Positions 1,331 through 40,597 are shown, counted from the stretch's first letter. The stretch: 64,000 bases of DNA from Candidatus Rokuibacteriota bacterium (GCA_016866775.1 VGLJ01000002.1:28174-92173), one strand, 5' to 3'. A program made the numbers and translations. Notes: a model not told the origin generated them from the sequence alone.

Positions 1331-1378
1331 GCGTGCGACGACGGTCGGAAGGGGGGCGAAGCCCCCCTCCGAGTGTTA
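1331..1378. repeat. REP-like GC-rich palindromic element, copy A (gcgtgcgacgacggtcGGAAGGGGGGcgaagCCCCCCTCCgagtgtta)
   Basis: Near-identical copies at 15921..15966 (inverted) and 54366..54414, half-copy at 63184..63203; its 3' end overlaps the lpdA stop codon. Confidence 0.65.
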
Positions 1379-2758
1379 CAGGTGGATCGCTTGACCGAGC
1401 GCGCCCAGCGTCGCCTCGAGCGCGGCCTCGGACAGCGTCGGGTGGGCGTGGATCGTATGGATGATCTCCTCGAGCGTCGCCTCGAGTGTGCGGCCGACCG
1501 CGAACTCGTGGATCATCTCCGTCGCCTCGGGCCCGAGAATGTGGACGCCGAGGATCTCGCCCGTCGACTTGTCGGCCACCACCTTCACGAAGCCGTCCGT
1601 GTCGCCGAGCGCCACCGCCTTGCCGCTCGCGGTGAACGGGAACTTGCCGACCGTGACCGTGCGGCCGTTCTCCTTCGCCTTGGCCTCGGTGAGGCCGATC
1701 GACGCGATCTGCGGGCGGCAGTACGTGCAGGACGGGACGTTCGTGTAGTCGACGGGGCGCGGGCTCTTGCCCGCGATCGCCTCCGCCGCCACGACGCCTT
1801 CGGCCATGGCCTTGTGCGCGAGCAGCGGCGCGCCCGCCATGTCGCCGATCGCGTAGACGCCCTTCACCGACGTCTCCATCATCGGGGAGACCTTCACGAA
1901 GTTCTTCTCCGTCTGGATGCCGAGGTTGTCGAGGCCGACGTCCTTCACCTTCGCGGCGCGGCCGACGGCCATCAGCACCTGCTCGGCGTCGAGCGTCCCT
2001 GAATCCGTCGTCACGCGGACGCCCTTGTCGCTCGCCGTAACCGACTGCACCTTCACGCCGGTCTTCGCCTCGATCTTCCGGCGCGCGAAGATGCGCGAGA
2101 GCTGCGTGGACACTTCCTCGTCCTCGATCGGGACGATCCGCGGCAACGCCTCCAGCAGCGTGACCGTCGTGCCGTACGCGCTGTAGACGTCCGCGAACTC
2201 CACGCCGACCGCGCCCGCGCCGATGATCACGAGCGACGCGGGACGGCCTTCGTTGCGCACGGCGCCGTTCGAGGAGATCACGCGCTTCTCGTCGATCGTC
2301 ACCCCGGGGATCGAGCGGGGCTCGGAGCCGGTCGCGAGGATCACCGCGCGGCCTTCGAGCGTCGTGGTGCCGGCGGCGCCGGTCACCTCGACGGCGGTCG
2401 CGCTCCGCAGCACGCCGCGGCCGGGCACGAGCGTGATCTTGTTCTTGCGGAACAGGAACTCGACGCCCTTCGCCATCCGGTCGGCGACCCGCCGGCTCCT
2501 GCGCACGGCCTCGGCGTAGTCGGCCTGGAAGCCGCTCACCTTGATGCCGAACTCCTCGGCGCGCGCGAAGAGGTGGACGACCTCGGCGTTGCGCAGCAGC
2601 GCCTTGGTGGGGATGCAGCCCCAGTTGAGGCACACGCCGCCCGGGCGATCGTCCTCGACCGCGGCCACGGAGAGACCGAGCTGCGCGCACCGGATCGCGG
2701 ACACGTAACCGCCCGGGCCCGTGCCGACGACGACGACGTCGAACTTCTGGGTCGCCAT
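1376..2758 (-). CDS. lpdA: dihydrolipoyl dehydrogenase (E3)
   Basis: N-terminal FAD motif VVVVGTGPGGYVSAI, redox-active CLNWGCIPTK, C-terminal HAHPTLSE. Confidence 0.95.
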   Translation of the reverse strand: MATQKFDVVVVGTGPGGYVSAIRCAQLGLSVAAVEDDRPGGVCLNWGCIPTKALLRNAEVVHLFARAEEFGIKVSGFQADYAEAVRRSRRVADRMAKGVEFLFRKNKITLVPGRGVLRSATAVEVTGAAGTTTLEGRAVILATGSEPRSIPGVTIDEKRVISSNGAVRNEGRPASLVIIGAGAVGVEFADVYSAYGTTVTLLEALPRIVPIEDEEVSTQLSRIFARRKIEAKTGVKVQSVTASDKGVRVTTDSGTLDAEQVLMAVGRAAKVKDVGLDNLGIQTEKNFVKVSPMMETSVKGVYAIGDMAGAPLLAHKAMAEGVVAAEAIAGKSPRPVDYTNVPSCTYCRPQIASIGLTEAKAKENGRTVTVGKFPFTASGKAVALGDTDGFVKVVADKSTGEILGVHILGPEATEMIHEFAVGRTLEATLEEIIHTIHAHPTLSEAALEATLGALGQAIHL

Positions 2759-2761
2759 CGC

Positions 2762-4177
2762 CTAGACCAGGAGCCGCAGCGACTCTTCGAGGAGACGCTT
2801 GACGTCCTGCAGGAAGCGCGCGCCCATCGCGCCGTCCATCACGCGGTGGTCGCACGAGAGCGTCATCATCATGCGGCGTCCGACGCCGAGCCCGGTGTCG
2901 TCGACGACCGGCACCTGCCGCACCGTGCCCACCGCGAGGATCGCGCCCTCCGGCGGGTTGATGATCGCGGAGAACTCGGTCACGTCGTACATGCCGAGGT
3001 TCGAGATCGAGAACGTCGCGCCCGACATCTCCTGCGCGCGCAGCTTGCGGTTGCGCGCGCGCTCGGCGAGATCCCGCGACTCGACCGCGATCTGGCTCAG
3101 GCTCTTCGCGTGGCAGTCGCGGAGCACGGGCGTGATCAATCCCTCCTCGAGCGCGACCGCGATTCCGATGTGCGCGCGGTGATACACGCGGATCGCCTCG
3201 CCCTGGAACGACGCGTTCACGCCGGGATGCTGCAGCAGCGCGAGCGCGCAGGCGCGAACGACGAAGTCGTTCACGGAGATCTTCGGCTGCCCTTCGAGGC
3301 CGTTCAGCTCCTCACGGAGCTCCCACGCGCGATCCATGGCGACTTCGCTCGAGACGTAGAAGTGCGGCACCGGCGCTTTCGACAGCGGCATCCGCTTGGC
3401 GATGATGGCGCGCATCTGCGACAGGGGCCGATCCTCGAACTCCGGACCGGCGGGGACGGCGACGGCTTGTGCCGTCGCGCCGCTCGCGGCCGGCGCCATG
3501 ACGGCGGCTTCGACGTCCTTGCGGACGATGCGTCCGCCGGGTCCACTGCCATGCACGAGCCGAAGATCAACGCCCGACTGCGCGGCAACTTTGCGCGCGA
3601 GCGGCGAGGCTTTGACACGGCCGGTGCTCGCGGCAGCGGGCGTCCTCGCCGCTGCCGCGCCTGCCCCCGATCGCGCAGCGGGTTCGGCGCGCTCGACGGT
3701 GACGTGATCTTCGCCGCGCGGCTGGGGAGGCACGGCCGCAGGCCGCGACGATGTTGCGCCGCTCGTCGCCCCTCCGCGTGATGGAGCCGAGGCTGGGGCG
3801 GCGGCGGCTCCGGGGGATGTCCGGCCGACATCCGCAGGCCCTGCGAGGACCGGAGGCCGGGCATCCCCCGGAGCCGCCGCCGCCCCAGCCGCCGCACCGC
3901 CACCAGCGGAGGCGACGACCGACGCGATGTCTTCGTTCGCCTCGGCAATGACGGCGATGAGCGTGCCGACGGGCGCCCGATCGCCCTCGGCCACGAGAAT
4001 CTTGCGCAGCACGCCCGCGCCGAAGGCCTCCATCTCGACGTCGGCCTTGTCGGTCTCGACCTCGGCGAGGATGTCGCCGCCGTTGACGCGGTCGCCTTCC
4101 TTCTTGATCCACTTGATGACCTTGCCGGTCTCCATCGCTTCGGACAGCTTCGGCATGACGACCTTGGTGATGGCCAT
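2762..4177 (-). CDS. dihydrolipoamide acyltransferase (E2) of the pyruvate/2-oxoacid dehydrogenase complex
   Basis: Lipoyl domain (ETDKADVEMEA), Ala/Pro linker, E3-binding domain, catalytic DHRVMDGA motif. Confidence 0.9.
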   Translation of the reverse strand: MAITKVVMPKLSEAMETGKVIKWIKKEGDRVNGGDILAEVETDKADVEMEAFGAGVLRKILVAEGDRAPVGTLIAVIAEANEDIASVVASAGGGAAAGAAAAPGDARPPVLAGPADVGRTSPGAAAAPASAPSRGGATSGATSSRPAAVPPQPRGEDHVTVERAEPAARSGAGAAAARTPAAASTGRVKASPLARKVAAQSGVDLRLVHGSGPGGRIVRKDVEAAVMAPAASGATAQAVAVPAGPEFEDRPLSQMRAIIAKRMPLSKAPVPHFYVSSEVAMDRAWELREELNGLEGQPKISVNDFVVRACALALLQHPGVNASFQGEAIRVYHRAHIGIAVALEEGLITPVLRDCHAKSLSQIAVESRDLAERARNRKLRAQEMSGATFSISNLGMYDVTEFSAIINPPEGAILAVGTVRQVPVVDDTGLGVGRRMMMTLSCDHRVMDGAMGARFLQDVKRLLEESLRLLV

Positions 4178-4180
4178 GGC

Positions 4181-5170
4181 TCAGCTCCCGTTGGCGTAGC
4201 AGACGCGGCGCACGGCGTCGACGACCCGGTCCTTATTTGGCGTCTTGAGGCGCTCGAGGTTGCGCGCGTACGGCATCGGCGCGTTGGCGCCCGTCACGCG
4301 CTCGACGGGCGCGTCGAGGTCGTCGAACGCGCGCTCGGTGATGAACGACGCGATCTCGGAGCCCATGCCGGCGAAGCCCGCGCCCGCTTCGACGACCACC
4401 GCGCGATGGGTCTTGCGCACCGACCCGACGATCGTCTTCTCGTCCATGGGCCGGAGCGTGCGCGGGTCGACGATCTCGACCGAGATCCCGTCTTTCTCGA
4501 GGATCTCCGCCGCCTCCATCGCGCGGTACATCATCCCCATGTACGCGATGACCGTGACGTCGGTGCCTTCGCGGCGGACGATGGCCTCGCCGAGCGGGAC
4601 CGTGAACTCCGGGTCTTCCGGCACCTCGCCCTTGATCGCGTAGAGCGTCTCCGACTCGATGAAGATGACCGGGTTGTCGTCGCGGATGGCGGACTTCAGC
4701 AAGCCCTTCGCGTCCATCGGCGTGGACGGCCGCACGACCTTGAGCCCGGGCACGTGATAGAAGTAGCTCTCCATCGACTGCGAGTGCTGCGCGGCCAGCT
4801 GATGCGCCGGGCCGCCCGGACCGCGCACGACGATCGGGATCGGATACTGCCCGCCGGACATGTAGTTCATCTTCGCCGCGGTGTTCACGATCTGGTCGAG
4901 CGCCAGCAGCGCGAAGTTGAACGTCATCATCTCCACGACCGGCCGCAGGCCGACCATGGCGGCGCCGATACCGACGCCCGTGAAGCCCGACTCCGCGATG
5001 GGGGTGTCGACGATGCGTTGCGGGCCGAACTCCTTGAGCAGGCCCTGCGTCACCTTGTACGCGCCCTCGTAGAGGCCGACCTCTTCGCCGATCACGAACA
5101 CGCGCGGGTCGCGATGCATCTCCTCGCGCAGGGCCAGGTTGAGCGCTTCGCGATAGGTCATCACCGCCAT
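4181..5170 (-). CDS. pdhB: pyruvate/2-oxoacid dehydrogenase E1 beta subunit (true start MAVMTYREAL, not the 514-aa ORF start)
   Basis: Transketolase-like E1-beta sequence (IVDTPIAESGFTGVGIGAAMVGLRP...); ATG at 5168-5170. Confidence 0.9.
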   Translation of the reverse strand: MAVMTYREALNLALREEMHRDPRVFVIGEEVGLYEGAYKVTQGLLKEFGPQRIVDTPIAESGFTGVGIGAAMVGLRPVVEMMTFNFALLALDQIVNTAAKMNYMSGGQYPIPIVVRGPGGPAHQLAAQHSQSMESYFYHVPGLKVVRPSTPMDAKGLLKSAIRDDNPVIFIESETLYAIKGEVPEDPEFTVPLGEAIVRREGTDVTVIAYMGMMYRAMEAAEILEKDGISVEIVDPRTLRPMDEKTIVGSVRKTHRAVVVEAGAGFAGMGSEIASFITERAFDDLDAPVERVTGANAPMPYARNLERLKTPNKDRVVDAVRRVCYANGS

Positions 5171-5175
5171 CGTCG

Positions 5176-6177
5176 TCAGTCCTTGTAGATGTCGGTGAAG
5201 AGCTCTTCGCTGGCCGGCTCCGGCGAGGCGTCGGCGAAGGCGACGGCCTCGTCGATGATGTCGTTGACGTCCTTCTCGATTCCCTGGACGTCCTCCCCGG
5301 TGAGCAGGCCCGCGCCGACGGCGCGGTCGCGGAAGAGCACGATCGGGTCGCGCAGCTTCTCGCGCTCCACCTCTTCCTTCGTCCGGTAGACGGCGCCGGC
5401 CGGATCGCGCATCGAGTGGCCGCGGAAGCGGTACGTGCGCGCCTCGAGCAGCGCCGGTGTCTTGTCCTTGCGCGCGCGCTCGACGGCCTTCCGCGTGCTC
5501 TCGCGAATGGCGAGCACGTCCATCCCGTCCACGGGCTCGGACGGGATCCCGTACGTCTCGCCGAACTTGTAGATCTCGGTCTGCGCGAGCGCGCGCTCGA
5601 GCGAGGTGCCCATCGCGTAGCGGTTGTTCTCGCAGACGTAGACGACGGGAAGCTTCCACAGCGCGGAGAGGTTCAGCGCCTCGTGGAACTCGCCCTCGGG
5701 CACGGCGCCGTCGCCGAAATAACACACGCAGACCTGGTCGCCGCCCTGGTACTTGATCGCGAAGCCGACGCCCGCGGCGAGGGGCAGGTGCGCGCCGACG
5801 ATCGCGTGCCCGCCGAGGAAGTTCACGCTCTTGTCGAACAGGTGCATCGAGCCGCCCTTGCCCTTCGAGAGCCCGTCGCTGCGCCCGAACAGCTCGGCCA
5901 TGGCGCGCTTGGGGTCGGAGCCCTTCGCCAGGCAGTGGCCGTGCTCGCGATACGTCGAGATCGCGTAGTCGTCCTGACGGAGGACGGACGTGACCCCGAC
6001 CGCCACCGCCTCCTCGCCGATCGAGAGGTGGAGGAAGCCGCCGATCTTGCCGAGCGCGTAGTTCTCCGCCGCCTTCTCCTCGAACCGGCGGATGAGCATC
6101 ATCTCGTGCAGCAGCTGCTTGGCCGTCGCGCCATCGACGCCGAGCCCCTGCGCCGCTTTTCCTGTCTTCTGGGCCAT
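5176..6177 (-). CDS. pdhA: pyruvate/2-oxoacid dehydrogenase E1 alpha subunit (TPP-binding); true start MAQKTGKAA
   Basis: YREHGHCLAKG...GDGAVPEGEFHEALN...VCENNRYAMGT motifs; its AGGAG RBS overlaps the nuoK stop codon. Confidence 0.9.
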   Translation of the reverse strand: MAQKTGKAAQGLGVDGATAKQLLHEMMLIRRFEEKAAENYALGKIGGFLHLSIGEEAVAVGVTSVLRQDDYAISTYREHGHCLAKGSDPKRAMAELFGRSDGLSKGKGGSMHLFDKSVNFLGGHAIVGAHLPLAAGVGFAIKYQGGDQVCVCYFGDGAVPEGEFHEALNLSALWKLPVVYVCENNRYAMGTSLERALAQTEIYKFGETYGIPSEPVDGMDVLAIRESTRKAVERARKDKTPALLEARTYRFRGHSMRDPAGAVYRTKEEVEREKLRDPIVLFRDRAVGAGLLTGEDVQGIEKDVNDIIDEAVAFADASPEPASEELFTDIYKD

Positions 6178-6188
6178 GGATTGAACTC

Positions 6189-6491
6189 CTACCAGCGCAT
6201 CAGGCTGAGATCGTCCACGGAGAGTCGGCTGCGCTGCCGGAAGATCGCGACGATGATCGCCAGGCCGACCGCGACCTCCGCCGCCGCCACCGCCATCACG
6301 AAGAAGACGAGCGCCTGTCCCTCCGCACTTCCGTAGCGCCGGCCGAACGCGACCAGCGCGAGGTTCGCCGCGTTGAGCATCAGCTCGATCGACATGAAGA
6401 TCACGAGCGGGTTGCGTCGGATGACGACGCCGATGACGCCGAGCGAGAACAGCACCGCGGACAGCGCCGTGTACCACACCTCGGGGATCAC
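6189..6491 (-). CDS. nuoK: NADH-quinone oxidoreductase subunit K (cluster 1), GTG start
   Basis: 100-aa, three TM helices, [14 protein letters not shown] signature. Confidence 0.9.
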
Positions 6492-6979
6492 GACGGTCTC
6501 CGCCGCGCCAGGACGAGCACGCCGACCATCGCGGCCAGCAGCAGGACCGACGTGAGCTCGAACGGGAACAGGTAGTCGGTGAAGAGCAGCGTGCCGAGCG
6601 ATTCCGCGCTCCCGCCCGCCGGCGGCGGGGGGACGCGCGCGTCGCGCGGCCGCACGATCATGGCGAGCTGGACGAACAGCAGCGCGCCGACGGGCAGCGC
6701 GAGCAGGCGCACCGCGCGGCGCGGGTCGGGGCCCGTTTCCTCCTTGCCCGGGATCAGCACCATGATCGCGAACACGAAGAGCACCATGATCGCGCCCGCG
6801 TAGACGATGACCTGCGCGGCCGCGAGGAACTCGGCGCCCAGGCTCAGATAGAGCACGGCGACGCATGCGAGGTTGATCACGAGGAAGAGCGCGCCGTGGA
6901 TCGGGTTGCGCTTGAGGATCAGCCCGAGCGCGGACGCCACTGCGAGCACCGCGACGACGAAGAACGTGACCGTCGCCAT
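6488..6979 (-). CDS. nuoJ: NADH-quinone oxidoreductase subunit J (cluster 1)
   Basis: Start [14 protein letters not shown]; hydrophobic NuoJ-like sequence. Confidence 0.85.
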
Positions 6980-7518
6980 CAGGGATGCCGCCGCGGCGGG
7001 ATCGGGATCGGCGAGCGCGGGCGCCCGTCGGTGCCCGCGGGCTCGAGCGAGAGCAGCCTCTCCTTCGTATAGATCATCGACTGCCGGTCGTACGCCGAGA
7101 ACTCGAGGATGCCGGTGTCCATGCGGATCGCGTCTTCGGGACACGCCTCGACGCAGTACCCGCAGAACACGCACTTGCCGAGGTCGATGTCGAAGCGCTG
7201 CGGCATCTTCTCGATCTCGGGATTGGGATGCTCTTCGGCGACGATGTAGATGCAGCGCGCCGGGCACACGGTCTCGCACATCATGCAGGCCACGCAGCGC
7301 GGCGAGCCGTCCTCGCGGCGCACGAGCCGGTGCAGCGTGCGCAGGCGCGGCGACAGCGGCCGGCGCTCCTCCGGATACTGGATGGTGACCGCGCCCCGCG
7401 CGTCCTTCTTGCCGAGGCTCCGCGCGATGTGCTTGCCCATGTTGCGGAAGAAGTGGCCGGCGGTGAGACCGAGGCCGCTCAGCACCTCGCGGAGATAGAA
7501 CCGCTGGCCGAGGTTCAT
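6979..7518 (-). CDS. nuoI: NADH-quinone oxidoreductase subunit I (2x[4Fe-4S] ferredoxin)
   Basis: [12 protein letters not shown] and [12 protein letters not shown] motifs; start [11 protein letters not shown]. Confidence 0.9.
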
Positions 7519-8609
7519 CGGGCTCCCCACGCGAGCACGAGCGCGCCCGTGAGCACGATGTTGAGGATCGACAGCGGGAAGAGGCCGAGCCAGCCGAGCT
7601 TCATCGCCTGATCGTAGCGGAAGCGCGGCAGCGTCCACCGGATCAGCATGAGGATGAAGATCATGACCGCGACCTTGGTGACGAACGCGCTTACCTGGAG
7701 CACCGTGACGGCGAGCGGCGAGAGCAGGAGCTCCGCACCCCACGGGAAGTGGAAGCCCTCGGCGTAGAGGTAGGGCACCTGCCAGCCGCCGAGGAAGAGC
7801 GCGGTGCAGAGCCCGGCGAGCACCGTCGTCTCCACCATGTCGGTCATCAGGAACATCCCGAACTTCATCCCGCTGTACTCGACGTTGTAGCCGATGATCT
7901 CGGACTCGCCCTCCGGGAAGTCGAAGGGGATGCGCTTGGTGGCGGCGATGCCCGCGGTCAGGAACAGGATGAACGCGAGGGGCTGGGTGATGATGCCCCA
8001 CTTCGGCAGCCAGCCCCAGAGGAGCTGGCCCTGCGCGCGCGCGATGTCCATCATGTTCAGCGAGCCGTAGATCATGATCACGCCCATGACGGAGGCGCCG
8101 ATCGCGATCTCGGCCGAGATCATCAGCGCGGCCGCGCGCTGGCCGCCGAGCAGCGCGAAGTTGTTGCCGGACGACCAGCCGGCCATCATCACGCCGTAGA
8201 CGCCGAGCGACAGCATCGCGAAGACGTAGAGGATCCCGACGTTGAGCGTGACGGCCTGCAGCGGGATCACGCGGTCGCCGATCGTGAGCGTGTCGCCGAA
8301 CGGGATCGACGCGAACGCCACCAGCGCGAAGACGACGGAGACGAACGGGGCCAGGCTGAAGAGGACCTTGTCGGCCCGCGCCGGGCGGAAGTCTTCCTTC
8401 GTCAGCATCTTCAGCGTGTCCGCGAGCGGGTGGAACAGGCCGAGCGCGCGAATGCCGAAGATCGACGCGCGGTTGGCGCCGATGCGGTCCTGCATGATCG
8501 CCGACTGCTTGCGCTCGACCCAGCCGAGGATCGCCGCCGTGTTCAGCACGAACAGCATGACGAACGCCACCCGCCCGAACGCGATGCCGAGATCCGCGAC
8601 GAGGCTCAT
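7515..8609 (-). CDS. nuoH: NADH-quinone oxidoreductase subunit H
   Basis: Full-length NuoH/ND1 signature (ERKQSAIMQDRIGANRASIFG..., EGESEIIGYNVEYSG). Confidence 0.95.
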   Translation of the reverse strand: MSLVADLGIAFGRVAFVMLFVLNTAAILGWVERKQSAIMQDRIGANRASIFGIRALGLFHPLADTLKMLTKEDFRPARADKVLFSLAPFVSVVFALVAFASIPFGDTLTIGDRVIPLQAVTLNVGILYVFAMLSLGVYGVMMAGWSSGNNFALLGGQRAAALMISAEIAIGASVMGVIMIYGSLNMMDIARAQGQLLWGWLPKWGIITQPLAFILFLTAGIAATKRIPFDFPEGESEIIGYNVEYSGMKFGMFLMTDMVETTVLAGLCTALFLGGWQVPYLYAEGFHFPWGAELLLSPLAVTVLQVSAFVTKVAVMIFILMLIRWTLPRFRYDQAMKLGWLGLFPLSILNIVLTGALVLAWGAR

Positions 8610-10225
8610 GCTTTCGCCTCGGCGGGCGCTTGCGGGGCGGTGCCGGCGGTCATCGCGCCCGTGTCGCCGATCGACTGGTACGTCAAGCCGGCGAACGCGG
8701 GCACGCCGGCCGCCAGCGCGCGGAACCAGTGCTCGGCGCGCGTTGCCGTCACCGGCGCGCCCGTCGCCGCGAGGATCCGGCCGACGATCTCCCAGGTCGG
8801 GATCGCCTCGCCGAGCGCTCCGAGCGCGGGGCGGAAGCGCTGCACCCGGCCTTCGAAGCTCGTGAACGTGCCGTCGCGCTCCACCCAGGCCGACGCGGGC
8901 AGCGCGAGATGCGCGCGGTCGCTCGTGCGGCTGCCGTTCGGGCCGACGAAGATCAGCGTGTCGACGGCTTCGAGCGCGCTACGGACGTCGCTCTCGCGCC
9001 ACCCCGTGTCGAAGAGATCGTGCTCGAAGACGAGGAGCGATCGCACGCGATGCGCGGTCGCCTCGTTGAGGATCTTGTCCACCTTGCCGTCGAGGCCCAT
9101 GAGCTCGGCGCCGCGGGTGTTCGGGTTCTTGTCGGCGCGGATGAGGAAGTCGTCCTCGTAGCCCGGCTCGGGCGGCGGCACGCGGAAGCCGACCTGGCGG
9201 ATCCCGCGCGCCTCGGCGAGCGTCTTGATCGCGAAGAGGTCCTCGTTCGCGAGCTTCGGCGAGGCGATGATCGCGGTCTGGTCCGCGGGCGTGCGACCAA
9301 GCGCGTCGACGACGGCCGCGATCGCGCCGCCCCAGCTCAGCTCCCGCGTCTCGCCGGCGTCGTTCCGGACCGGCAGCACGAGGCGCGTCGGCGCGTCGAC
9401 GAAGCCGTATCCGTACCGGCCCTCGTCGCACATCCACCACCTGTTCACGTCCTCGTTGAAGCGCGGCTTCACGCGCGCCACGCGCCGGCCTTCCGCGTGA
9501 TGCGGGCGGCGCCGGTTGACGTGCACGTCGATGTTGCAGCCGCGCGCGCAGCCCGGGCAGATCGACTTCGTGGTGTCGAGGTACCAGACGCGAACCTGGA
9601 AGCGGAAGTCGCGGTCGGTGAGCGCGCCGACCGGGCAGATGTCGACCACGTTGCCGGAATACTTGTTGGTGAGGTCGGCGCCGGGGAAGAGGCCGATCTC
9701 CGAGTGATCGCCGCGATTGAAGATGCCGAGCTCGCCCGTCTGGGTGACCTCGTCGCAGAAGCGCACGCAGCGCGAGCAGAGGATGCACCGCTCGGCGTCG
9801 AGCATCACGTGCGGCCCGAGCGGCACCGCCTTCGGCTTGTGGACCTTCTCGTCCTTCATCCGCGGGTCGTAGAGGCCGTGCTGCATGTAGTAGATCTGCA
9901 GCCAGCACTCGCCGGCCTGGTCGCACACGGGGCAGTCGAGCGGGTGGTTGATCAGGTGGAACTCCATGATCGACCGCCGCGTCTCCTTCACCCGATCGGT
10001 CTGCGTGTGGACGATCATCCCGTCCGTCGCCGGCGTGTTGCACGCGATCGTCGGGCGCGGCGTCTTCTCGATGTCGACCATGCACAGGCGGCACTGGCCG
10101 GCGATGGAGAGTCCCGGGTGATAGCAGTAGTGCGGGATCTCGATGCCGAGCCGGCGCGCGGCCTCGATGAGATTGGTCCCCGCGGGGACCTCGATCTCCT
10201 TGCCGTCGATCGTCAGCTTCGGCAT
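8606..10225 (-). CDS. nuoG: NADH-quinone oxidoreductase subunit G (75 kDa, short form)
   Basis: 2Fe-2S and 4Fe-4S cysteine motifs (CYHPGLSIAGQCRLC, CPVCDQAGEC, CILCSRCVRFC); start MPKLTIDGKEI. Confidence 0.9.
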   Translation of the reverse strand: MPKLTIDGKEIEVPAGTNLIEAARRLGIEIPHYCYHPGLSIAGQCRLCMVDIEKTPRPTIACNTPATDGMIVHTQTDRVKETRRSIMEFHLINHPLDCPVCDQAGECWLQIYYMQHGLYDPRMKDEKVHKPKAVPLGPHVMLDAERCILCSRCVRFCDEVTQTGELGIFNRGDHSEIGLFPGADLTNKYSGNVVDICPVGALTDRDFRFQVRVWYLDTTKSICPGCARGCNIDVHVNRRRPHHAEGRRVARVKPRFNEDVNRWWMCDEGRYGYGFVDAPTRLVLPVRNDAGETRELSWGGAIAAVVDALGRTPADQTAIIASPKLANEDLFAIKTLAEARGIRQVGFRVPPPEPGYEDDFLIRADKNPNTRGAELMGLDGKVDKILNEATAHRVRSLLVFEHDLFDTGWRESDVRSALEAVDTLIFVGPNGSRTSDRAHLALPASAWVERDGTFTSFEGRVQRFRPALGALGEAIPTWEIVGRILAATGAPVTATRAEHWFRALAAGVPAFAGLTYQSIGDTGAMTAGTAPQAPAEAKA

Positions 10226-10226
10226 G

Positions 10227-11447
10227 TCAGCGCTGGCAGAGTGCTTCGAACTCGCCACGGAACTTCTCGATGTACGAGATGTACGGACCCACGGCGCCGT
10301 CGTAAAACGCGCAGATCGTCGTGCCCGCGCCGCGCTTGGCGACGTCGAGGATCGTGTCCAGGTCGTCCTTTCGGCCTTTGCCCTCGACGATGCGGTGACA
10401 CATCTTGTAGATCCAGCCGGTGGACTCGCGACACGGCGTGCACTGGCCGCAGCTCTCGTGCGCGTAGAAGCGCGCGACGACCATCAGCGCTTCGGGAATC
10501 GAGACCGTGTCGTCGAAGACGATCACGCCCGCGGAGCCCGCCATGGTGCCGGCGTTGCGCAGGCCGTCGACGTCCATGACCACGTCGATCTCGTGGGCGG
10601 CGAGGATCGGCGCCGACGAGCCGCCGGGGACGACGGCCTTCAGCCGGCCGCTGCCGCTGACGCCGCCCGCGCGCTCGATGAGCTCGCGCAGCGTGATCGC
10701 GCACGACTCCTCGTACACGCCTGGCGTGGTCACCCGGCCCGAGACCGAGTACATCCGGGTCCCACCCTGCGTCTTCGAGCCGAGTCCCGCGAACCACGCC
10801 GCGCCGCGGTTGATGATGTGCGGCACGCAGCAGATCGTCTCGACGTTGTTGACGATCGTGGGCTGCCCGAACGCGCCCTTGATGGCCGGGAACGGCGGCT
10901 TCACCTTCGGCCAGCCCTTCTTGCCCTCGAGCGAGGAGATCAGGCCCGTCTCCTCGCCGCAGATGTAGGCGCCGGCGCCGCGATGCACGACGATGTCGAA
11001 GCCCTGGCCGAGATAGCCCGCGTCGTAGGCCTCGCGTACGGCCGCGGTGAAGCGGCGCCACGGCTCCACGTACTCGCCGCGGATGTAGACGAACCCGAGC
11101 GCGGACTTGATCGCGCGCGCGGCGATGATCATGCCCTCGATGAGCGCGTGCGGGTCCCGCTCGAGGAGGTAGCGGTCCTTGAACGTGCCCGGCTCGCCCT
11201 CGTCCGCGTTGATGACGAGATACACGGGGCCGGAGTGGTTCTTCGGGATGAACGACCACTTCATGCCGGTCGGGAAGCCCGCGCCGCCGAGGCCGCGCAA
11301 GTTCGACTTCTTCACCTCGTCGAGGATCGCCGCGGGCTCTCTGCCGAGCGCTTGCGCGAGCGCCGTGTAGCCGCCGGTCTCGCGATAGACCTTGAGGGTG
11401 TGCGAGTCCTTCACCCCGAAGTTGCGCGAGAGGATCTTCTCGCTCAT
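10227..11447 (-). CDS. nuoF: NADH-quinone oxidoreductase subunit F (NADH/FMN-binding, 51 kDa)
   Basis: GLGGAGFPTGMKW, GAGAYICGEETGLISSLEGK and ESCGQCTPCR motifs. Confidence 0.95.
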   Translation of the reverse strand: MSEKILSRNFGVKDSHTLKVYRETGGYTALAQALGREPAAILDEVKKSNLRGLGGAGFPTGMKWSFIPKNHSGPVYLVINADEGEPGTFKDRYLLERDPHALIEGMIIAARAIKSALGFVYIRGEYVEPWRRFTAAVREAYDAGYLGQGFDIVVHRGAGAYICGEETGLISSLEGKKGWPKVKPPFPAIKGAFGQPTIVNNVETICCVPHIINRGAAWFAGLGSKTQGGTRMYSVSGRVTTPGVYEESCAITLRELIERAGGVSGSGRLKAVVPGGSSAPILAAHEIDVVMDVDGLRNAGTMAGSAGVIVFDDTVSIPEALMVVARFYAHESCGQCTPCRESTGWIYKMCHRIVEGKGRKDDLDTILDVAKRGAGTTICAFYDGAVGPYISYIEKFRGEFEALCQR

Positions 11448-11926
11448 CGGAGCGCCTCGACGATGCGGTCGACTTTGTCGGGCGTGAGGTTCATCTCGTA
11501 GCGGTCGTCCACCTGCATCATCGGCGCGGCCTCGCACGCGCAGAGACATTCCACGGCCTGCAGCGTGATGCGGCCGTCGTCCGTCGTCTCGCCCACGTCG
11601 ATGCCCAGGCGCTCCTTGAGGTGCGCGAGGATCAGCGGCGCGCCCGCGAGGTGGCAGGAGAGGTTGTGGCAGACGGCCACGACGTGGCGGCCCCTGGGCT
11701 GCCGGAAGTAGAGGGTGTAGAACGTCACCACTTCGTGCACGTGCGCGGGGCTCAGCCCGAAGAGCGACGCGACGTACTCCTCCACCTCGAGCGAGACGTA
11801 GCCGAACGTGTCCTGCGCCATGTGAAGCACCGGCAGCAGGGCGCCGCGCTTGTCGGGGTAGAGCCCCTGCAGCCGGCGGACTTCGGCAAGCTGCCCGGTG
11901 GAGAACGCGATCGACTGCACGCTCAC
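11444..11926 (-). CDS. nuoE: NADH-quinone oxidoreductase subunit E (24 kDa, 2Fe-2S), GTG start
   Basis: CHNLSCHLAG...ECLCACEAAP thioredoxin-like ferredoxin motifs. Confidence 0.9.
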   Translation of the reverse strand: MSVQSIAFSTGQLAEVRRLQGLYPDKRGALLPVLHMAQDTFGYVSLEVEEYVASLFGLSPAHVHEVVTFYTLYFRQPRGRHVVAVCHNLSCHLAGAPLILAHLKERLGIDVGETTDDGRITLQAVECLCACEAAPMMQVDDRYEMNLTPDKVDRIVEALR

Positions 11927-13311
11927 CGGTCGAGCTCCCCGCCGATCATGTTCACCGAGCCGAACGTCGGGATGAGATCGGCGATCATCTCGCCCTCGAT
12001 CATGCGATGGAGCGCCGCGAGCGGCGGCAGGCACGGCGGCCGGCAGCGCACGCGGTAGGGACGATCGCTCCCGTCCGAGACGACGTAGAACCCGAGCTCG
12101 CCGTTCGCGCCTTCGGTGGCGAAGTACGCCTCGCCCTGCGGCGGCCGGATCCCGTAGCCTTCCATGATCAGCATGAAGTGGTTCATGAGACCTTCGATGG
12201 AGCCGTACGCGTTCTCCTTCGGCGGCAGGACCACGCGCTTGTCGTGGACGTTCACGCGCCGCTGCGCGGCGCGCCCCTGGCCCTCGAGATTCGGCGAGAG
12301 CGTGATCGGCACGAGCAGCAGGCCTTCGGTCTTCCCCTGCTTGCCCTGGTCGACGTACATCGCCGGATCGATCGGGCGGCCTTCGTGGTCGACGTTCACG
12401 GGGCCCGCGGGGATCGCGTCGAGCGCCTGCTCGGCGATCCGCATCGACTGCTCCATCTCGGCCATGCGCACGAGATACCGCGCGTAGTTGTCGCCGTCCT
12501 TCTGCGTCGGGACTTCCCACTCCACGCGGTCGTACGCCCAGTGCGGCTGCGCCCGGCGCACGTCGTAGCCGACGCCGGCGGCGCGCAGCAGCGGCCCGGT
12601 GATCGCGTAGGCGATCGTCTCCTCGCGCGAGAGGCGGCCGACCCCGACCATGCGGTCCATGAAGATCCGGTTGCCGGTGAGCAGCCGGTGGACCTCGGCG
12701 AGCACCAGGCGCGTCTCGGCGAACGCCTTCTTCGCCTGCGCGGCGAAGCCGTCGGGCAGGTCGGCCTTCACGCCGCCGACGCGGCCGTAGGAGATCGTCA
12801 GCCGGGCGCCGGTCACCGCCTCGACGAGCTCCCAGAGGAACTCGCGCGCCTTGATCATGTAGAGGAACACGGTGAACGCGCCGAGCTCCATCGCCGACGC
12901 GCCGACGCACGTGAGGTGATCGCACACGCGCGAGATCTCGGACATGATCGTCCGGATGTACGTGCAGCGCTCGGTCACCTCGATGCCGAGGAGCTTCTCG
13001 ACCGCGTTGGCGTAGCCGAAGTTGTTGATGAGCGGGGAGACGTAGTTCAGGCGGTCCGTGTACGGGATCGCGTTGTTCCACCCGCCGACTTCACAATCCT
13101 TCTCGAACGCGCGGTGGAGATAGCCGATCTCGACGTCGGACTTCGTGATCATCTCGCCGTCGAGCTCCGTCGTGATCCGGATGATCCCGTGCATCGCGGG
13201 GTGCTGCGGCCCGACGCCGAGGTGCATGGGCTGGCTGCCGCCGCCGGTGCCGCCGCCTTCGCCGAGCATGAACTCGCGCGTGGTCGTGGGCCGAGGCTCT
13301 GTCGTGGCCAT
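11923..13311 (-). CDS. nuoD: NADH-quinone oxidoreductase subunit D (49 kDa)
   Basis: MHLGVGPQHPAMHGIIRI...C-terminal GSVNMIGGELDR. Confidence 0.95.
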   Translation of the reverse strand: MATTEPRPTTTREFMLGEGGGTGGGSQPMHLGVGPQHPAMHGIIRITTELDGEMITKSDVEIGYLHRAFEKDCEVGGWNNAIPYTDRLNYVSPLINNFGYANAVEKLLGIEVTERCTYIRTIMSEISRVCDHLTCVGASAMELGAFTVFLYMIKAREFLWELVEAVTGARLTISYGRVGGVKADLPDGFAAQAKKAFAETRLVLAEVHRLLTGNRIFMDRMVGVGRLSREETIAYAITGPLLRAAGVGYDVRRAQPHWAYDRVEWEVPTQKDGDNYARYLVRMAEMEQSMRIAEQALDAIPAGPVNVDHEGRPIDPAMYVDQGKQGKTEGLLLVPITLSPNLEGQGRAAQRRVNVHDKRVVLPPKENAYGSIEGLMNHFMLIMEGYGIRPPQGEAYFATEGANGELGFYVVSDGSDRPYRVRCRPPCLPPLAALHRMIEGEMIADLIPTFGSVNMIGGELDR

Positions 13312-13809
13312 CTAGTGCGCGGGGCCGATGAGCGGCTGGCGTCGTGTGATCGGATAGTCCTTCCGCAGCGGGTGGCCGACGAACTCCTCGTACATGAGCA
13401 GCCGGCGCAGGTCCGGATGCCCGTCGAAGCGGATGCCGAACATGTCCCACACCTCGCGCTCGAACCAGTTCGCGATCGGCCACAGCGAGTTGGCGGTTGG
13501 CACGAGGGCGTCGTCCTCGTCCACGCGCACCTTCACGCGCACGCGGTGGTTGTGCGCGATCGAGTACAGATGGTAAACGACCTCGAAGCGCGGCCCGTCC
13601 TCGCGGCCGGGGAACTTCGAGTAGTCGACCGCGGTGAGATCCATCAGCACGTCGAACGCGAGCGCACCGCTGTCCCGGCAGAACGTCAGCACGTCGCGCA
13701 GCGCGCGCCGCCCCACCACGGCCGTGTGATCGCCACGATGATCGTGGGTCTCGAGGACGGCGCTGCCGAAGCGCGCGCGGAGCTCGTCGAGGATCGCGGC
13801 CCCGTCCAC
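13312..13809 (-). CDS. nuoC: NADH-quinone oxidoreductase subunit C (30 kDa), GTG start
   Basis: [24 protein letters not shown] signature. Confidence 0.9.
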   Translation of the reverse strand: MDGAAILDELRARFGSAVLETHDHRGDHTAVVGRRALRDVLTFCRDSGALAFDVLMDLTAVDYSKFPGREDGPRFEVVYHLYSIAHNHRVRVKVRVDEDDALVPTANSLWPIANWFEREVWDMFGIRFDGHPDLRRLLMYEEFVGHPLRKDYPITRRQPLIGPAH

Positions 13810-14267
13810 TAGTACCTCTGGACCTGGGTCGCGATCTTGTCCTGCAGCTTCATCAGGCCGTCCAGCACCGATTCGGGGCGCGGCGGGCAGCCCGGGATGT
13901 AGACGTCCACCGGAATGATGGTGTCGATGCCCTGCACCGTGGCATAGTTGTCGTAGAAGCCGCCCGTGCACGTGCACACGCCGAACGCAACCACCCACTT
14001 CGGCTCCGTCATCTGGTCGTAGATGCGCTTCAAGACAGGAGCCATCTTGTGCGAGATGGTCCCCACCACGAACAGGACATCCGCCTGGCGAGGAGAAAAG
14101 CGAGGCAGCCCGGCGCCGAACCGGTCCACATCGTAATGCGAGCACGCGGTCGCCATGTACTCCATGCCGCAGCACGCGGTCACAAACGGGTACTGGAAGA
14201 TCGAGTACTTCCGCGCCCAGCCGATGGCTTCGTCGAGCTTCGACGTGAAGAAGCTGCCTACTCCCAT
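13809..14267 (-). CDS. nuoB: NADH-quinone oxidoreductase subunit B (20 kDa, N2 cluster)
   Basis: FVTACCGMEYMA...GVCTCTGGF...IPGCPPRPE motifs; start MGVGSFFTSKLDE. Confidence 0.9.
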   Translation of the reverse strand: MGVGSFFTSKLDEAIGWARKYSIFQYPFVTACCGMEYMATACSHYDVDRFGAGLPRFSPRQADVLFVVGTISHKMAPVLKRIYDQMTEPKWVVAFGVCTCTGGFYDNYATVQGIDTIIPVDVYIPGCPPRPESVLDGLMKLQDKIATQVQRY

Positions 14268-14596
14268 TCGAGCCCCCCCTTGCGCCAGATATAGAGGAAG
14301 CCGAACATCAGGATCCCCAGGAACACGAGCATCTCGGCGAAGCCGAACCAGCCGAGCCGGCGATAGAGCACCGCCCACGGCCAGATGAAGATCAGCTCGA
14401 TGTCGATCAGGATGAAGAAGATCGCGATCGTCGAGAACTTGATCGCGAAGCGTCCCTCCGCGACTTCGATCGGATCCTTGCCGCACTCGAACGGCTGCGC
14501 CTTCACCGCGGTGAGCCGGCGGGGCGCGATGAGGTGCGGGATCCAGATCAGCGCCCCCGCCACGGCCGCGGCGAAGGCGAACACCATGACGACCGG
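14258..14596 (-). CDS. nuoA: NADH-quinone oxidoreductase subunit A (start ambiguous: GTG ~14596 or ATG ~14587)
   Basis: PFECGKDPIE...ILIDIELIFIWPWA NuoA signature. Confidence 0.85.
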   Translation of the reverse strand, partial: PVVMVFAFAAAVAGALIWIPHLIAPRRLTAVKAQPFECGKDPIEVAEGRFAIKFSTIAIFFILIDIELIFIWPWAVLYRRLGWFGFAEMLVFLGILMFGFLYIWRKGGLEWE

Positions 14597-14604
14597 CACG
14601 TATT

Positions 14605-15594
14605 CTATGACCGCACATGGGGGGCCGCTTCCAGCGTCCCCCCAAGCCCCCCAGCGCTGCGGGCGCGGAGTGAATCCGCGCCCTTCGTGAGCGCCCTCTT
14701 CGCTGCCACTTCGGCCTGGTTCTTCGCGTGGTACGAGCTGCGCACGAGCGGGCCGGCCTCGACGTGCGCGAACCCCATCGACCGCCCCGCCTCCGCGAGC
14801 GCGGCGAACTCGTCGGGGTGGTAGTAGCGCGCGACCGGCAGGTGCGCGGGCGACGGCCGGAGGTACTGGCCGAGCGTGAGGATCGAGACGCCCGTCTCCC
14901 GGACGTCGCGCATCGTGTCGCGCAGCTCCCCGGGCGTCTCGCCGAGCCCGACGATGATCCCGGACTTCGTCACGAGATCCGGCGCACGGTGCCTCACGTG
15001 GCGGAAGACGTCGAGCGTGCGGTCGTAGCGGCCGCCGTGGCGCGCGAGCTTGTAGAGGCGCGGCACGGTCTCGGTGTTGTGATTGAAGACGTCGGGCGCC
15101 GCGTCGAGCACGGCGTCGATCGCCGAGGCGAGCCCCTGGAAGTCGGGGACGAGCACTTCCACGCGGCACCCCGGCGCGTGGCGTCGCACCGCGCGGATCG
15201 TCGCCGCCCAGTGCGTGGCGCCGCCGTCGGCGAGGTCGTCACGATTCACCGACGTGATCACGACGTGGTCGAGGCCCATCAGCGCCGTCGCGCGTCCGAT
15301 GCGCTCGGGCTCCTCACGATCTTCCCATTGCGGCTTGCCGTGCGCGACGGCGCAGTAGCCACAGTTCCGCGTGCACACGTCGCCGAGGATCATGAACGTC
15401 GCGGTCGCATCTTCCCAGCACTCGCCGATGTTCGGGCAGTGCGCTTCCTCGCATACCGTGTGGAGGTTCGCGGCGCGGAGCAGTCGCTTCAGGCGCATGT
15501 AGCTCGGCCCGCCGGGCGCACGGACCTTGAGCCACGCGGGCTTGCGCCCCGAGGCGCCGTCGTGGGGCTGGATGACCGGTAGCGAGTGCGTCAT
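14605..15594 (-). CDS. lipA: lipoyl synthase (radical SAM); C-terminal ~40 aa tail unusually long and overlaps the hairpins
   Basis: CEEAHCPNIGEC and CTRNCGYC motifs; start MTHSLPVIQPH preceded by TATAAT (15626..15631). Confidence 0.9.
   Translation of the reverse strand: MTHSLPVIQPHDGASGRKPAWLKVRAPGGPSYMRLKRLLRAANLHTVCEEAHCPNIGECWEDATATFMILGDVCTRNCGYCAVAHGKPQWEDREEPERIGRATALMGLDHVVITSVNRDDLADGGATHWAATIRAVRRHAPGCRVEVLVPDFQGLASAIDAVLDAAPDVFNHNTETVPRLYKLARHGGRYDRTLDVFRHVRHRAPDLVTKSGIIVGLGETPGELRDTMRDVRETGVSILTLGQYLRPSPAHLPVARYYHPDEFAALAEAGRSMGFAHVEAGPLVRSSYHAKNQAEVAAKRALTKGADSLRARSAGGLGGTLEAAPHVRS
14618..14683 (-). terminator. two GC-rich hairpins between lipA and nuoA (GGGGGG-N13-CCCCCC; GGGCGCGGA-gtgaa-TCCGCGCCC), terminator/attenuator-like
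   Basis: Perfect 9-bp stem with 5-nt loop at 14661..14683 plus a G6/C6 stem at 14619..14643; they lie inside the annotated 3' tail of the lipA ORF. Confidence 0.4.
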
Positions 15595-15625: not shown

Positions 15626-15631
15626 ATTATA
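15626..15631 (-). promoter_or_regulatory. -10 box TATAAT upstream of lipA (overlaps the stop of the small membrane gene)
   Basis: Perfect TATAAT ~30 nt upstream of the lipA ATG; no good -35 seen. Confidence 0.3.
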
Positions 15632-15917
15632 CCGCGCGGCGCCGGAGCCGCCGGTTGATGGCCGCGAGGAGCCGGCGCTGATCGAGCAAGATCAGCAGCA
15701 GCTGACCGAAGACGATGAAGGGCGCGCCCGCGAGAATGCCGGACAGCACGAGGAACACCGCGACGACCACGCGCTCGAGGAACACCTGCCCGGTGACGCT
15801 CGCCCACGGCGTTTCGATGATGAGCGCGACGACGGCGAGCCCGGCACCGACGATGACGATGACGAGCCCGATGACGACGAGCAGCCGCGCCCAAAACCGG
15901 GTAACCCGCTCACTCAT
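15627..15917 (-). CDS. small hypothetical membrane protein (96 aa, 3 predicted TM helices)
   Basis: ATG at 15915-15917; [34 protein letters not shown]...; sits between the REP copy and lipA. Confidence 0.5.
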
Positions 15918-15920
15918 GGA

Positions 15921-15966
15921 ACTCGGAAGGGGGGGCTGCGCCCCCCTTCCGACGGTCGTCGCGCAC
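15921..15966. repeat. REP-like palindromic element, copy B (inverted orientation relative to copies A and C; perfect 10-bp stem GGAAGGGGGG/CCCCCCTTCC)
   Basis: actcGGAAGGGGGGgctgcgCCCCCCTTCCgacggtcgtcgcgcac; between tRNA-Leu(GAG) and the small membrane gene. Confidence 0.65.
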
Positions 15967-16155: not shown

Positions 16156-16240
<85 letters not shown>

Positions 16241-16261: not shown

Positions 16262-16290
16262 AGTATATCGCTAGCCTTTGCGCGTCGCAA
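16262..16290 (-). promoter_or_regulatory. sigma70-like promoter TTGCGA-N17-TATACT upstream of tRNA-Leu(GAG)
   Basis: -10 TATACT lies ~21 nt upstream of the tRNA 5' end; overlaps the 3' end of the upstream permease gene. Confidence 0.45.
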
Positions 16291-19808: not shown

Positions 19809-20183
19809 CTACTTCGTGGGCGCGGCCGCGGGCGGCGCCGGTGCGGGCGCCGTGGTCGCGGGGGGCGCGGGCGTGGCGGGAGCCCGGGAGCCCGCGCCTT
19901 CAGATGGCGTGGCCGGAGCCGGTCGCTCACGCACCACCGAGCCCGTGCTCCCGCGCTCGCCGCCGAGCAACGCGAGCGAGAACGAGGTCAGCGTGAAGAC
20001 GATCGCCACCACCGTCGTGACCTTGCCGAGCACGGTGGGCGTGCTCATCGAGCCGAACACCGCCTGGCTGCCCGCGCCGCCGAACGCCGACCCGATGTCG
20101 GCGCCCTTGCCCGATTGCAGCAGGACGATCGCGATGATGGCGAAACACATGAGCACGTGAACGACCGTGAGCGCGATGATCAT
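19809..20183 (-). CDS. secG: preprotein translocase subunit SecG
   Basis: SecG signature LLQSGKGADIGSAFGGAGSQAVFG; conserved gap-pgk-tpiA-secG synteny. Confidence 0.85.
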   Translation of the reverse strand: MIIALTVVHVLMCFAIIAIVLLQSGKGADIGSAFGGAGSQAVFGSMSTPTVLGKVTTVVAIVFTLTSFSLALLGGERGSTGSVVRERPAPATPSEGAGSRAPATPAPPATTAPAPAPPAAAPTK

Positions 20184-22152: not shown

Positions 22153-22158
22153 GCGCGA

Positions 22159-23199
<1,041 letters not shown>

Positions 23200-36433: not shown

Positions 36434-36734
36434 GGAGCAGATCGAGCCGGTCGGCGTCGATGGTGCGACGCACGCGGAAGATGACGATGACGATGGCGAG
36501 ACCGACGGCGACCTCGGCGACCGTGATCGCGATGGTGAACAGCGCGAACAGGAGGCCGATCGGATCGCCGTGCAGCCGCGCGAACGCGACGAGGTTGATG
36601 TTGACCGCGTTCAGCATGAGCTCGATGCCGAGGAGGATCCCGACCGCGTTGCGCCGGGTGAGGACGCCGAAGAGCCCGATCGCGAACACGAGGGCGGCGA
36701 CCACCAGGTAGGAGTGGAGCCCGGGCACGCTCAA
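36426..36734 (-). CDS. nuoK: NADH-quinone oxidoreductase subunit K (cluster 2)
   Basis: GIELMLNAVNINLVAF signature; paralog of 6189..6491. Confidence 0.9.
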   Translation of the reverse strand: MSVPGLHSYLVVAALVFAIGLFGVLTRRNAVGILLGIELMLNAVNINLVAFARLHGDPIGLLFALFTIAITVAEVAVGLAIVIVIFRVRRTIDADRLDLLRG

Positions 36735-38770: not shown

Positions 38771-38773
38771 GGC

Positions 38774-39937: not shown

Positions 39938-39942
39938 CCGGC

Positions 39943-40578: not shown

Positions 40579-40597
40579 GCGTCCTTCCTCTCTCGCC

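Follow-up and report, generated by a model that had tools for sequence, protein, structure and literature searches.

A conserved gene array of lipoyl synthase, complex I subunits NuoA to NuoK, and pyruvate dehydrogenase in Rokubacteriales

The DNA analyzed here, hereafter the window, is a 64,000-nucleotide (nt) stretch from a Candidatus Rokuibacteriota bacterium (GCA_016866775.1 VGLJ01000002.1:28174-92173). Its minus strand carries an unbroken array of 16 genes, running from 15594 down to 1376, in which the genes for lipoyl synthase, respiratory complex I, and pyruvate dehydrogenase (PDH) follow one another. The window has a G+C content of about 70%. Open reading frames (ORFs) were taken from codon-position gene calling, and gene identities were assigned by Pfam and NCBIfam profile searches. 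Both profile sets bore out the order proposed in an earlier note on this DNA, which is lipA, nuoABCDEFGHIJK, pdhA, pdhB, the E2 gene, and lpdA. All array genes described below lie on the minus strand.

The first conserved gene of the array is lipA (14605-15594), encoding a lipoyl synthase of 329 amino acids (aa) that matched Pfam Radical_SAM and LIAS_N and scored 372.8 bits with TIGR00510 against a cut-off of 310.25. The protein carries the radical-SAM core and the N-terminal cluster domain and scores at equivalog level. The nuo genes, referred to here as cluster 1, come next. They comprise nuoA1 (14258-14599, 113 aa, Pfam Oxidored_q4), nuoB1 (13809-14267, 152 aa, Oxidored_q6), nuoC1 (13312-13809, 165 aa, Complex1_30kDa), nuoD1 (11923-13311, 462 aa, Complex1_49kDa in two stretches), nuoE1 (11444-11926, 160 aa, 2Fe-2S_thioredx), nuoF1 for the NADH/FMN-binding subunit (10227-11447, 406 aa, Complex1_51K, SLBB, and NADH_4Fe-4S; NF010120 at 478 bits against a cut-off of 389), a short-form nuoG1 (8606-10225, 539 aa, Fer2_4, NADH-G_4Fe-4S_3, Fer4_Nqo3, and Molybdopterin), nuoH1 (7515-8609, 364 aa, NADHdh), nuoI1 (6979-7518, 179 aa in the public gene call or 183 aa with a start at 7530, Fer4 families), nuoJ1 (6488-6979, 163 aa, Oxidored_q3), and nuoK1 (6189-6491, 100 aa, Oxidored_q2), the last nuo gene of the array. 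The N-module (NuoE, NuoF, and NuoG), the Q-module (NuoB, NuoC, NuoD, and NuoI), and the proximal membrane subunits (NuoA, NuoH, NuoJ, and NuoK) of complex I are all present in cluster 1.

The PDH genes complete the array. E1 alpha is encoded by pdhA (5176-6177, 333 aa, Pfam E1_dh; TIGR03182, PDH_E1_alph_y, at 449.9 bits against a cut-off of 393.9) and E1 beta by pdhB (4181-5170, 329 aa, Transket_pyr and Transketolase_C; NF006667 at 502.4 bits against 321). The probable E2 dihydrolipoamide acetyltransferase (2762-4177, 471 aa, matching the public call; Biotin_lipoyl, E3_binding, and 2-oxoacid_dh) has one lipoyl, one E3-binding, and one catalytic domain and scored 443.2 with the mitochondrial-type acetyltransferase profile TIGR01349, slightly under its cut-off of 445. 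The last conserved gene is lpdA (1376-2758, 460 aa, Pyr_redox_2 and Pyr_redox_dim; TIGR01350 at 552 bits against 408.8), encoding the E3 dihydrolipoyl dehydrogenase. By their profile matches, the dehydrogenase genes are of the pyruvate type, of the mitochondrial/alphaproteobacterial kind with a heterotetrameric E1. Two small ORFs beside the array, orf96 (15627-15917) and orf194 (728-1312), were weighed as possible members and rejected, as neither is conserved in relatives; the public annotation has no gene call at the position of orf194, and the public locus stops short of orf96. E2 length was found to differ between two assemblies with identical lpd genes, at 471 aa (L090 8582-9997) and 442 aa (L091 8669-9997), a difference that may reflect an indel in the E2 linker.

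The genes of the array are packed closely, with all 15 junctions lying between a 16-nt overlap and an 11-nt gap. The nuoA start follows the lipA stop after 5 nt, and the gaps among pdhA, pdhB, the E2 gene, and lpdA are 3-5 nt. Among the nuo genes, A/B overlap by 10 nt, B/C and I/J by 1 nt, and D/E, E/F, G/H, and J/K by 4 nt, while C/D abut and F/G are separated by 1 nt. The H/I overlap is 16 nt with the start at 7530 or 4 nt with the public 179-aa call. The earlier note had stated that all nuo junctions overlap by 1-4 nt, which is contradicted at A/B, C/D, and F/G. It had also placed the nuoK stop codon inside the pdhA Shine-Dalgarno sequence with a 9-nt gap. The spacer (6178-6188, minus strand) reads TAG GAGTTCAATCC ATG, with TAGGAGTTCAATCCATG as the spacer sequence; its GGAG does overlap the nuoK stop codon and ends 8 nt before the pdhA ATG, and the gap is 11 nt rather than 9. 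This spacer is too small to hold a terminator or a promoter. The array had further been described as translationally fused, a wording that should not be taken literally because the ORFs are separate and each has its own Shine-Dalgarno sequence. A promoter and terminator consensus scan returned nothing at any array junction, its overall match counts being at chance level. As in an operon, the genes share one strand, their junctions are short or overlapping, and no terminator-like site is found at the junctions.

Conservation of the array was assessed by scanning a genome collection with NuoH1 as the query and mapping the window proteins onto the best 80 loci, which come from species-level relatives. 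All 80 best matches belonged to metagenome-assembled genomes of Candidatus Rokubacteria, Rokuibacteriota, or Methylomirabilota (order Rokubacteriales), with NuoH identities of 75-88%, and nuoB1 was 90-98% identical in the relatives. The contigs reached nuoK in 70 of the 80 loci. The nuoK-pdhA adjacency, for which a survey of related genomes had been proposed, was found in every informative locus, pdhA being the next gene in 67 of the 67 that extend past nuoK; the remaining three contigs end within 152 nt of nuoK. The complete array from lipA to lpd was recovered in 37 loci. In 46 of 54 loci, at most 17 nt separated lipA from nuoA, and the two genes most commonly overlapped by 4 nt. The nuoK-pdhA spacer did not exceed 24 nt in 43 of 66 loci, where it usually had the form TAG-N(2-4)-GGAGG-N(4-6)-ATG. 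Based on the locus survey and the spacer counts, adjacency and orientation are invariant, and very tight junctions are the rule though not obligatory.

The genes for the antiporter-like subunits NuoL, NuoM, and NuoN (L/M/N) are missing from this conserved arrangement. None is present within 1376-15594, and in all 80 loci the 10 kb on either side of nuoH1 were free of L/M/N-like sequence. In the window, tblastn found antiporter-like sequence only at 31663-36433, where nuoL2-M2-N2 lie on the minus strand (Pfam Proton_antipo_M). On the contig of the source population in JGI/ENA assemblies, the 10 kb that follow lpd contain no antiporter-like gene either, so the claim that L/M/N exist only in a second cluster holds for the window and for those 10 kb. 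This second cluster (cluster 2, 31663-42035) also includes nuoA2-B2-C2-(NIPSNAP)-D2-H2-I2-J2-K2 (36426-42035, minus strand, Pfam), with K2 and L2 overlapping by 8 nt. By Pfam, its nuoA-D and nuoH-N sets are complete and nuoE, nuoF, and nuoG are absent, which makes it the 11-subunit type. In the window, E/F/G matches are confined to cluster 1 and L/M/N to cluster 2, and neither cluster encodes 14 subunits. The paralogues of the two clusters are only 31-51% identical (51% for nuoB1 and nuoB2). The clusters therefore represent different complex I lineages (lineages 1 and 2, respectively), and a recent duplication as their origin is ruled out.

Cluster 2 sits about 16 kb upstream of cluster 1 on the same strand. 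Macro-synteny was followed by locating homologues of ProA, encoded between the clusters, on long contigs. The window order recurs in two relatives (L086 and L087), whose ProA identities are 85% and 81%. There, nuoI2/J2-K2-L2-M2-N2 are followed by genes for a TetR protein and a sigma factor, rplU, rpmA, obg, proB, proA, nadD, rsfS, and dksA, and then by a TPR gene, a phosphoribosyltransferase-domain gene, gap, pgk, tpiA, secG, oppA, oppB, and oppC. In many of the 80 loci, oppC lies directly upstream of lipA, together with oppB and in some loci oppA. Since the order is shared by these two relatives and oppC precedes lipA so often, the group as a whole maintains the two nuo clusters in the same orientation at a distance of about 16 kb.

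Outside Rokubacteria, lineage 1 was also found beside genes of lipoyl enzymes. The matches listed by a direct homology search with NuoD1 were all from Rokubacteria with at least 85% identity, and sister lineages were reached via 50%-identity representatives and a second homology search. The nearest outside relatives spanning an insertion in NuoD, described below, were NuoCD fusions of candidate division KSB1, Calditrichota-like bacteria, and Elusimicrobia. Protein identities of 76-88% for B, 57-63% for D, and 55-63% for H show the KSB1-like and Elusimicrobia clusters to be orthologues of cluster 1 rather than of cluster 2. In two KSB1-like loci (L081 and L082), the order is a YpdA-like flavoprotein gene, lpd, lipB, nuoA, B, CD, E, F, G, H, I, a methyltransferase gene, a SucB-like E2 gene, and lipA, with E2 and lipA downstream in one genome (L081). 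Three others (L083, L088, and L089) have the YpdA-like gene and lpd ahead of a nuo set that runs from A to H or I. Of these, L088 and L089 also carry lipB, which L083 lacks, and in L089 tricarboxylic acid cycle genes lie in between. The KSB1-like clusters all end at nuoH or nuoI, with J, K, L, M, and N missing. The Elusimicrobia relative has the order L-M-N-A-B-CD-EF-G-H-I, with no lipoyl genes and no J/K nearby. Because the KSB1-like clusters are likewise flanked by lipoyl-enzyme genes, the link between nuo and lipoyl enzymes is probably older than Rokubacteria. Its recurrence in two distant groups, with nuo joined to E3, E2, and lipoate genes in different gene orders, argues for selection on co-expression or co-function and against a frozen accident. 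Lineage 1 is also habitually encoded without the distal membrane subunits, which must then come from other loci.

Two further features were observed in the KSB1-like loci. A gene for a putative bacillithiol-disulfide reductase of the YpdA family always precedes lpd (L081 6048-7043; L088 5757-6749; L089 1-532), and the Rokubacteria array has no YpdA counterpart. A second partial nuo set (nuoB', nuoC', a ferredoxin-like gene, and nuoD') directly follows the nuoA-I cluster in L083 (18745-21771) and L089 (17097-21866). In L089, a gene for an HdrD-like CCG-domain protein follows nuoD'.

Alignments of the cluster 1 proteins show which parts of the enzyme are retained. In NuoD1, the quinone-site motifs GPQHPAxHG and PYxDRLxY align with 49-kDa subunits. 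An insertion of about 46 residues (about 308-354) sets NuoD1 apart from all solved 49-kDa/NuoD structures; it is common to the KSB1 and Elusimicrobia NuoCD proteins, absent from NuoD2, and serves to define lineage 1. A short NuoG is the other mark of this lineage. Alignment of the 539-aa NuoG1 with the 690-910-aa NuoG/75-kDa chains in PDB extends over no more than residues 1-340, and much of the usual C-terminal domain is missing. NuoK1 keeps both membrane glutamates (SIELML and AAAEVA) when compared with Thermus thermophilus Nqo11. NuoA1 keeps the ECG loop and the DIE motif of transmembrane helix (TM) 2, as aligned with Mycobacterium smegmatis NuoA, and PDB alignments show that NuoJ1 keeps the TM3 Tyr and TM5 Glu motifs and that NuoH1 keeps its conserved motifs. 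In solved structures, the charged residues kept in NuoK1, NuoA1, NuoJ1, and NuoH1 link the quinone site to NuoN, and their retention is consistent with a pump module still being driven.

Taken together, we consider it rather probable that the array is a co-expressed super-operon conserved in Rokubacteriales, with L/M/N supplied in trans by cluster 2. Coordinated expression is the simplest reading because the array is conserved wherever it could be followed past nuoK, short junctions bearing Shine-Dalgarno sequences dominate, and the KSB1-like linkage is independent. This conservation suggests joint synthesis of the main NADH-producing and NADH-consuming enzymes, which perhaps also work together. 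Under this super-operon model, the 16 genes would be transcribed together, keeping NADH producer, NADH consumer, and cofactor supply in step. LipA would supply the lipoyl cofactor that activates E2, and the PDH complex would make NADH. The NuoEFG subunits of cluster 1 would then oxidize this NADH, NuoBCDI would reduce quinone, and NuoAHJK would form the proximal membrane part. The L/M/N pump module of this front end is probably borrowed from cluster 2, which is of the 11-subunit type and lies 16 kb upstream in the same orientation. Cluster 2 is the obvious source in Rokubacteria, since its L/M/N set is complete and the NuoK1, NuoA1, NuoJ1, and NuoH1 subunits keep their charged residues. Two complex I isoforms would thereby be built on one shared L/M/N module, of which the cluster 1 form would be fed by NADH and the cluster 2 form would lack an N-module. 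By analogy with other 11-subunit enzymes, the cluster 2 enzyme may take its electrons from ferredoxin (PMC11238625).

Several observations weigh against the super-operon model with borrowed subunits. In 16 of the 66 loci the nuoK-pdhA spacer measures 25-100 nt, and in a further 5 it measures 101-300 nt. A repetitive extragenic palindromic (REP)-like repeat, which could be the seat of promoters or terminators, is present in one to four copies in several of these long spacers, at least in L004, L005, L022, L045, L059, and L078. Two relatives have nuoK and pdhA separated by a 3-kb insert (L001 12583-15349; L026 12451-15312); it encodes a two-subunit, korAB-like 2-oxoacid:ferredoxin oxidoreductase, with POR, POR_N, and PFOR_II in one gene and a PorB/KorB-type beta subunit in the other. 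A tight nuoK-pdhA junction is therefore not essential, and the variable spacer lengths in relatives argue against obligatory translational coupling there. As to pump-module sharing, the L/M/N of the Elusimicrobia relative, which accompany lineage 1, are only 28-41% identical to L2/M2/N2 of the window. Because L2/M2/N2 belong to the other lineage and the paralogues of the two clusters share only 31-51% identity, docking of J1/K1 onto N2 is not guaranteed. Of the coupling proposed in the earlier note, coordinated expression is thus supported by comparative genomics, but strict nuoK-pdhA coupling is not conserved, with 21 of 66 spacers and the two inserts departing from it. The REP-like element itself is about 45-60 nt long with the core GCGAGCCGCAG ... 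GCGAGGCGAGCCT, and this core motif is absent from the window.

The same junctions bear on whether the adjacency has any function at all. It could be that lipA, nuoA-K, and pdh-lpd are transcribed separately, having come together a single time in the ancestor of Rokubacteriales and stayed adjacent through inertia, and the tolerated spacers of up to 300 nt and the 3-kb insertion would fit such a history. All relatives found also come from a single taxonomic order, which means that the 67 loci do not count as separate events. We nevertheless regard this explanation as very improbable. Gaps of 24 nt or less with Shine-Dalgarno sequences predominate, NuoH identities of 75-88% imply long divergence without loss of order, and KSB1-like bacteria have another arrangement of the same partners (lpd, lipB, E2, and lipA) around the same nuo lineage.

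A different possibility is that the lineage 1 nuoL/M/N genes lie at a third locus outside the window. Cluster 1 would then encode an ordinary 14-subunit complex I whose operon was split by rearrangement and came to lie beside pdh by chance. Fragmentation is indeed seen in the sister lineages, where L-M-N stand upstream of nuoA without J/K nearby in Elusimicrobia and the KSB1-like clusters end after nuoI. L2/M2/N2 also look native to cluster 2, given the 8-nt K2/L2 overlap and an identity to the Elusimicrobia L/M/N that is only at the level of lineage 2. A split operon is nonetheless unlikely, though it carries some weight. No L/M/N-like gene was seen within 10 kb of nuoH1 in the 80 relatives, in the 64-kb window outside cluster 2, or in the 10 kb beyond lpd, and a split would leave the conserved link to lipA, pdh, and lpd unexplained.

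Cluster 1 might instead need no L/M/N. NuoA-K would then form a small NADH:quinone oxidoreductase with only the proximal proton path (NuoH/A/J/K), moving few or no protons and acting as a low-coupling NADH sink for PDH. The A-K set is kept without L/M/N nearby in all relatives, and cluster 1 has its own J and K instead of depending on cluster 2 for them. Complex I subcomplexes without the distal pump module, such as those of Yarrowia and of E. coli mutants, still turn over and pump at reduced stoichiometry, which favors such an enzyme. On the other side, we know of no characterized member of the complex I superfamily without at least one antiporter-like subunit. NuoK1 retains both glutamates that normally relay to NuoN, and a complete L/M/N set lies in conserved synteny 16 kb away. 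An enzyme truly free of L/M/N is therefore the less likely case and seems to us rather improbable, although it would be remarkable if real. A bolder version, which we hold to be more doubtful still, has cluster 1 as a complex I without antiporter-like subunits docked to PDH. With E3 beside the NADH site of NuoF, the two would form a membrane-bound, NADH-channelling pyruvate:quinone oxidoreductase megacomplex. Docking would possibly occur via the NuoD insertion or the shortened NuoG, and the KSB1-type nuoA-I clusters, set among lpd, lipB, E2, and lipA, would encode other versions of it. That PDH physically docks on complex I is speculative, an idea which the data allow without directly supporting it.

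Measured against known systems, the parts of the array are ordinary family members, and the novelty is the conserved architecture and its implications. The canonical 14-gene nuoA-N/nqo1-14 operons of E. coli, Thermus thermophilus, Paracoccus, and M. smegmatis share with the array the A-to-K order, the N, Q, and proximal P modules, and the quinone-site and proton-path residues. The array differs from them in ending after nuoK, with pdhA in the place of nuoL, and in having lipA before nuoA, the 46-residue NuoD insertion, and a NuoG of 539 aa. Partial nuo clusters without NuoEFG are conserved and presumed functional, as in cyanobacterial NDH-1 and Desulfitobacterium (PMC11238625, PMC4453560), and like cluster 1 they agree with a modular picture of complex I. 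Cluster 2 is of the same kind as these 11-subunit enzymes, whereas cluster 1 is the mirror image, with the N-module kept and the distal pump module absent. Chloroflexus aurantiacus has two nuo clusters, one of them lacking nuoG, and sharing of the missing subunit has been proposed (PMC3150298). In that organism, one cluster is a full A-N set, whereas here neither is complete, since EFG are confined to cluster 1 and LMN to cluster 2. The E1 alpha, E1 beta, E2, E3 order is that of pdhABCD-type operons. Unlike those, the pdh genes of the window have no upstream region of their own, start 11 nt past nuoK, and have lipA as the head gene 8.4 kb upstream.

NADH channelling between PDH and complex I has long been debated for mitochondria. 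Sumegi and Srere reportedly found in 1984 that NAD-linked dehydrogenases, including PDH, bind mitochondrial complex I. The mitochondrial case involves the same pair of enzymes and biochemical evidence, whereas here the tie is a genetic linkage in bacteria. We found no published description of a conserved nuoA-K cluster without L/M/N, or of a nuo-pdh-lipA array, in Rokubacteria genome papers or in the literature searched on complex I, lipoyl enzymes, and NADH channelling. Clusters lacking the NADH module are well known, but a conserved cluster with this module and without all three pump subunits is apparently undescribed. If L/M/N are shared, the two clusters would be a natural case of two electron-input front ends on one pump module, with bearing on complex I modularity, assembly, and coupling. 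The linkage of PDH, E3, and lipoate synthesis to this complex I lineage in two distant groups offers comparative evidence for a functional tie between NADH producer and consumer. The array also provides defined gene sets for heterologous expression and refines metabolic models of Rokubacteria, an abundant uncultured group of soil and groundwater.

The surroundings of cluster 2 hold further genes. A gene with two NIPSNAP domains (39943-40578, minus strand, 211 aa, no NCBIfam match) lies between nuoC2 and nuoD2, and its product may serve the enzyme without an N-module as an accessory subunit or in docking the electron donor. An indolepyruvate-type 2-oxoacid:ferredoxin oxidoreductase has its alpha and beta subunits encoded 1.8 kb upstream of nuoA2 (43891-47507, minus strand). 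These genes mirror the NAD-linked PDH attached to the cluster 1 genes with their N-module. Their nearness to cluster 2 may be relevant to a ferredoxin-fed enzyme, as may the korAB-like insert after nuoK in two relatives. Between the two nuo clusters lie the lower-glycolysis genes gap, pgk, and tpiA (20180-23163, minus strand), with secG next to them in relatives.

The boundaries of the array may be marked by a pair of hairpins. A hairpin scan identified a G+C-rich structure of -21 kcal/mol, GGAGGGGGGC-TTCG-CCCCCCTTCC, at 1346-1372 on the minus strand, 3 nt past the lpd stop. A near-identical G+C-rich hairpin, GGAAGGGGGG-loop-CCCCCCTTCC, lies upstream of lipA at 15922-15953, so that the pair brackets the array from lipA to lpd. 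These hairpins may be terminators marking the array boundaries, or they may be repeat elements. No match to the Rex operator (TTGTGAA-N6-TTCACAA, with up to three mismatches) was found. An Rfam scan of the whole window returned two tRNAs as its only matches and no riboswitch or leader near lipA. A tRNA-Leu(GAG) gene between oppC and lipA (16156-16240, minus strand) was missed by Rfam at the gathering threshold and found by ARAGORN. A sigma-70-like site, TTGCGA-17-TATACT, lies just upstream of it at 16262-16290, and tRNA-Leu(GAG) is likewise upstream of lipA in 24 of 49 relatives.

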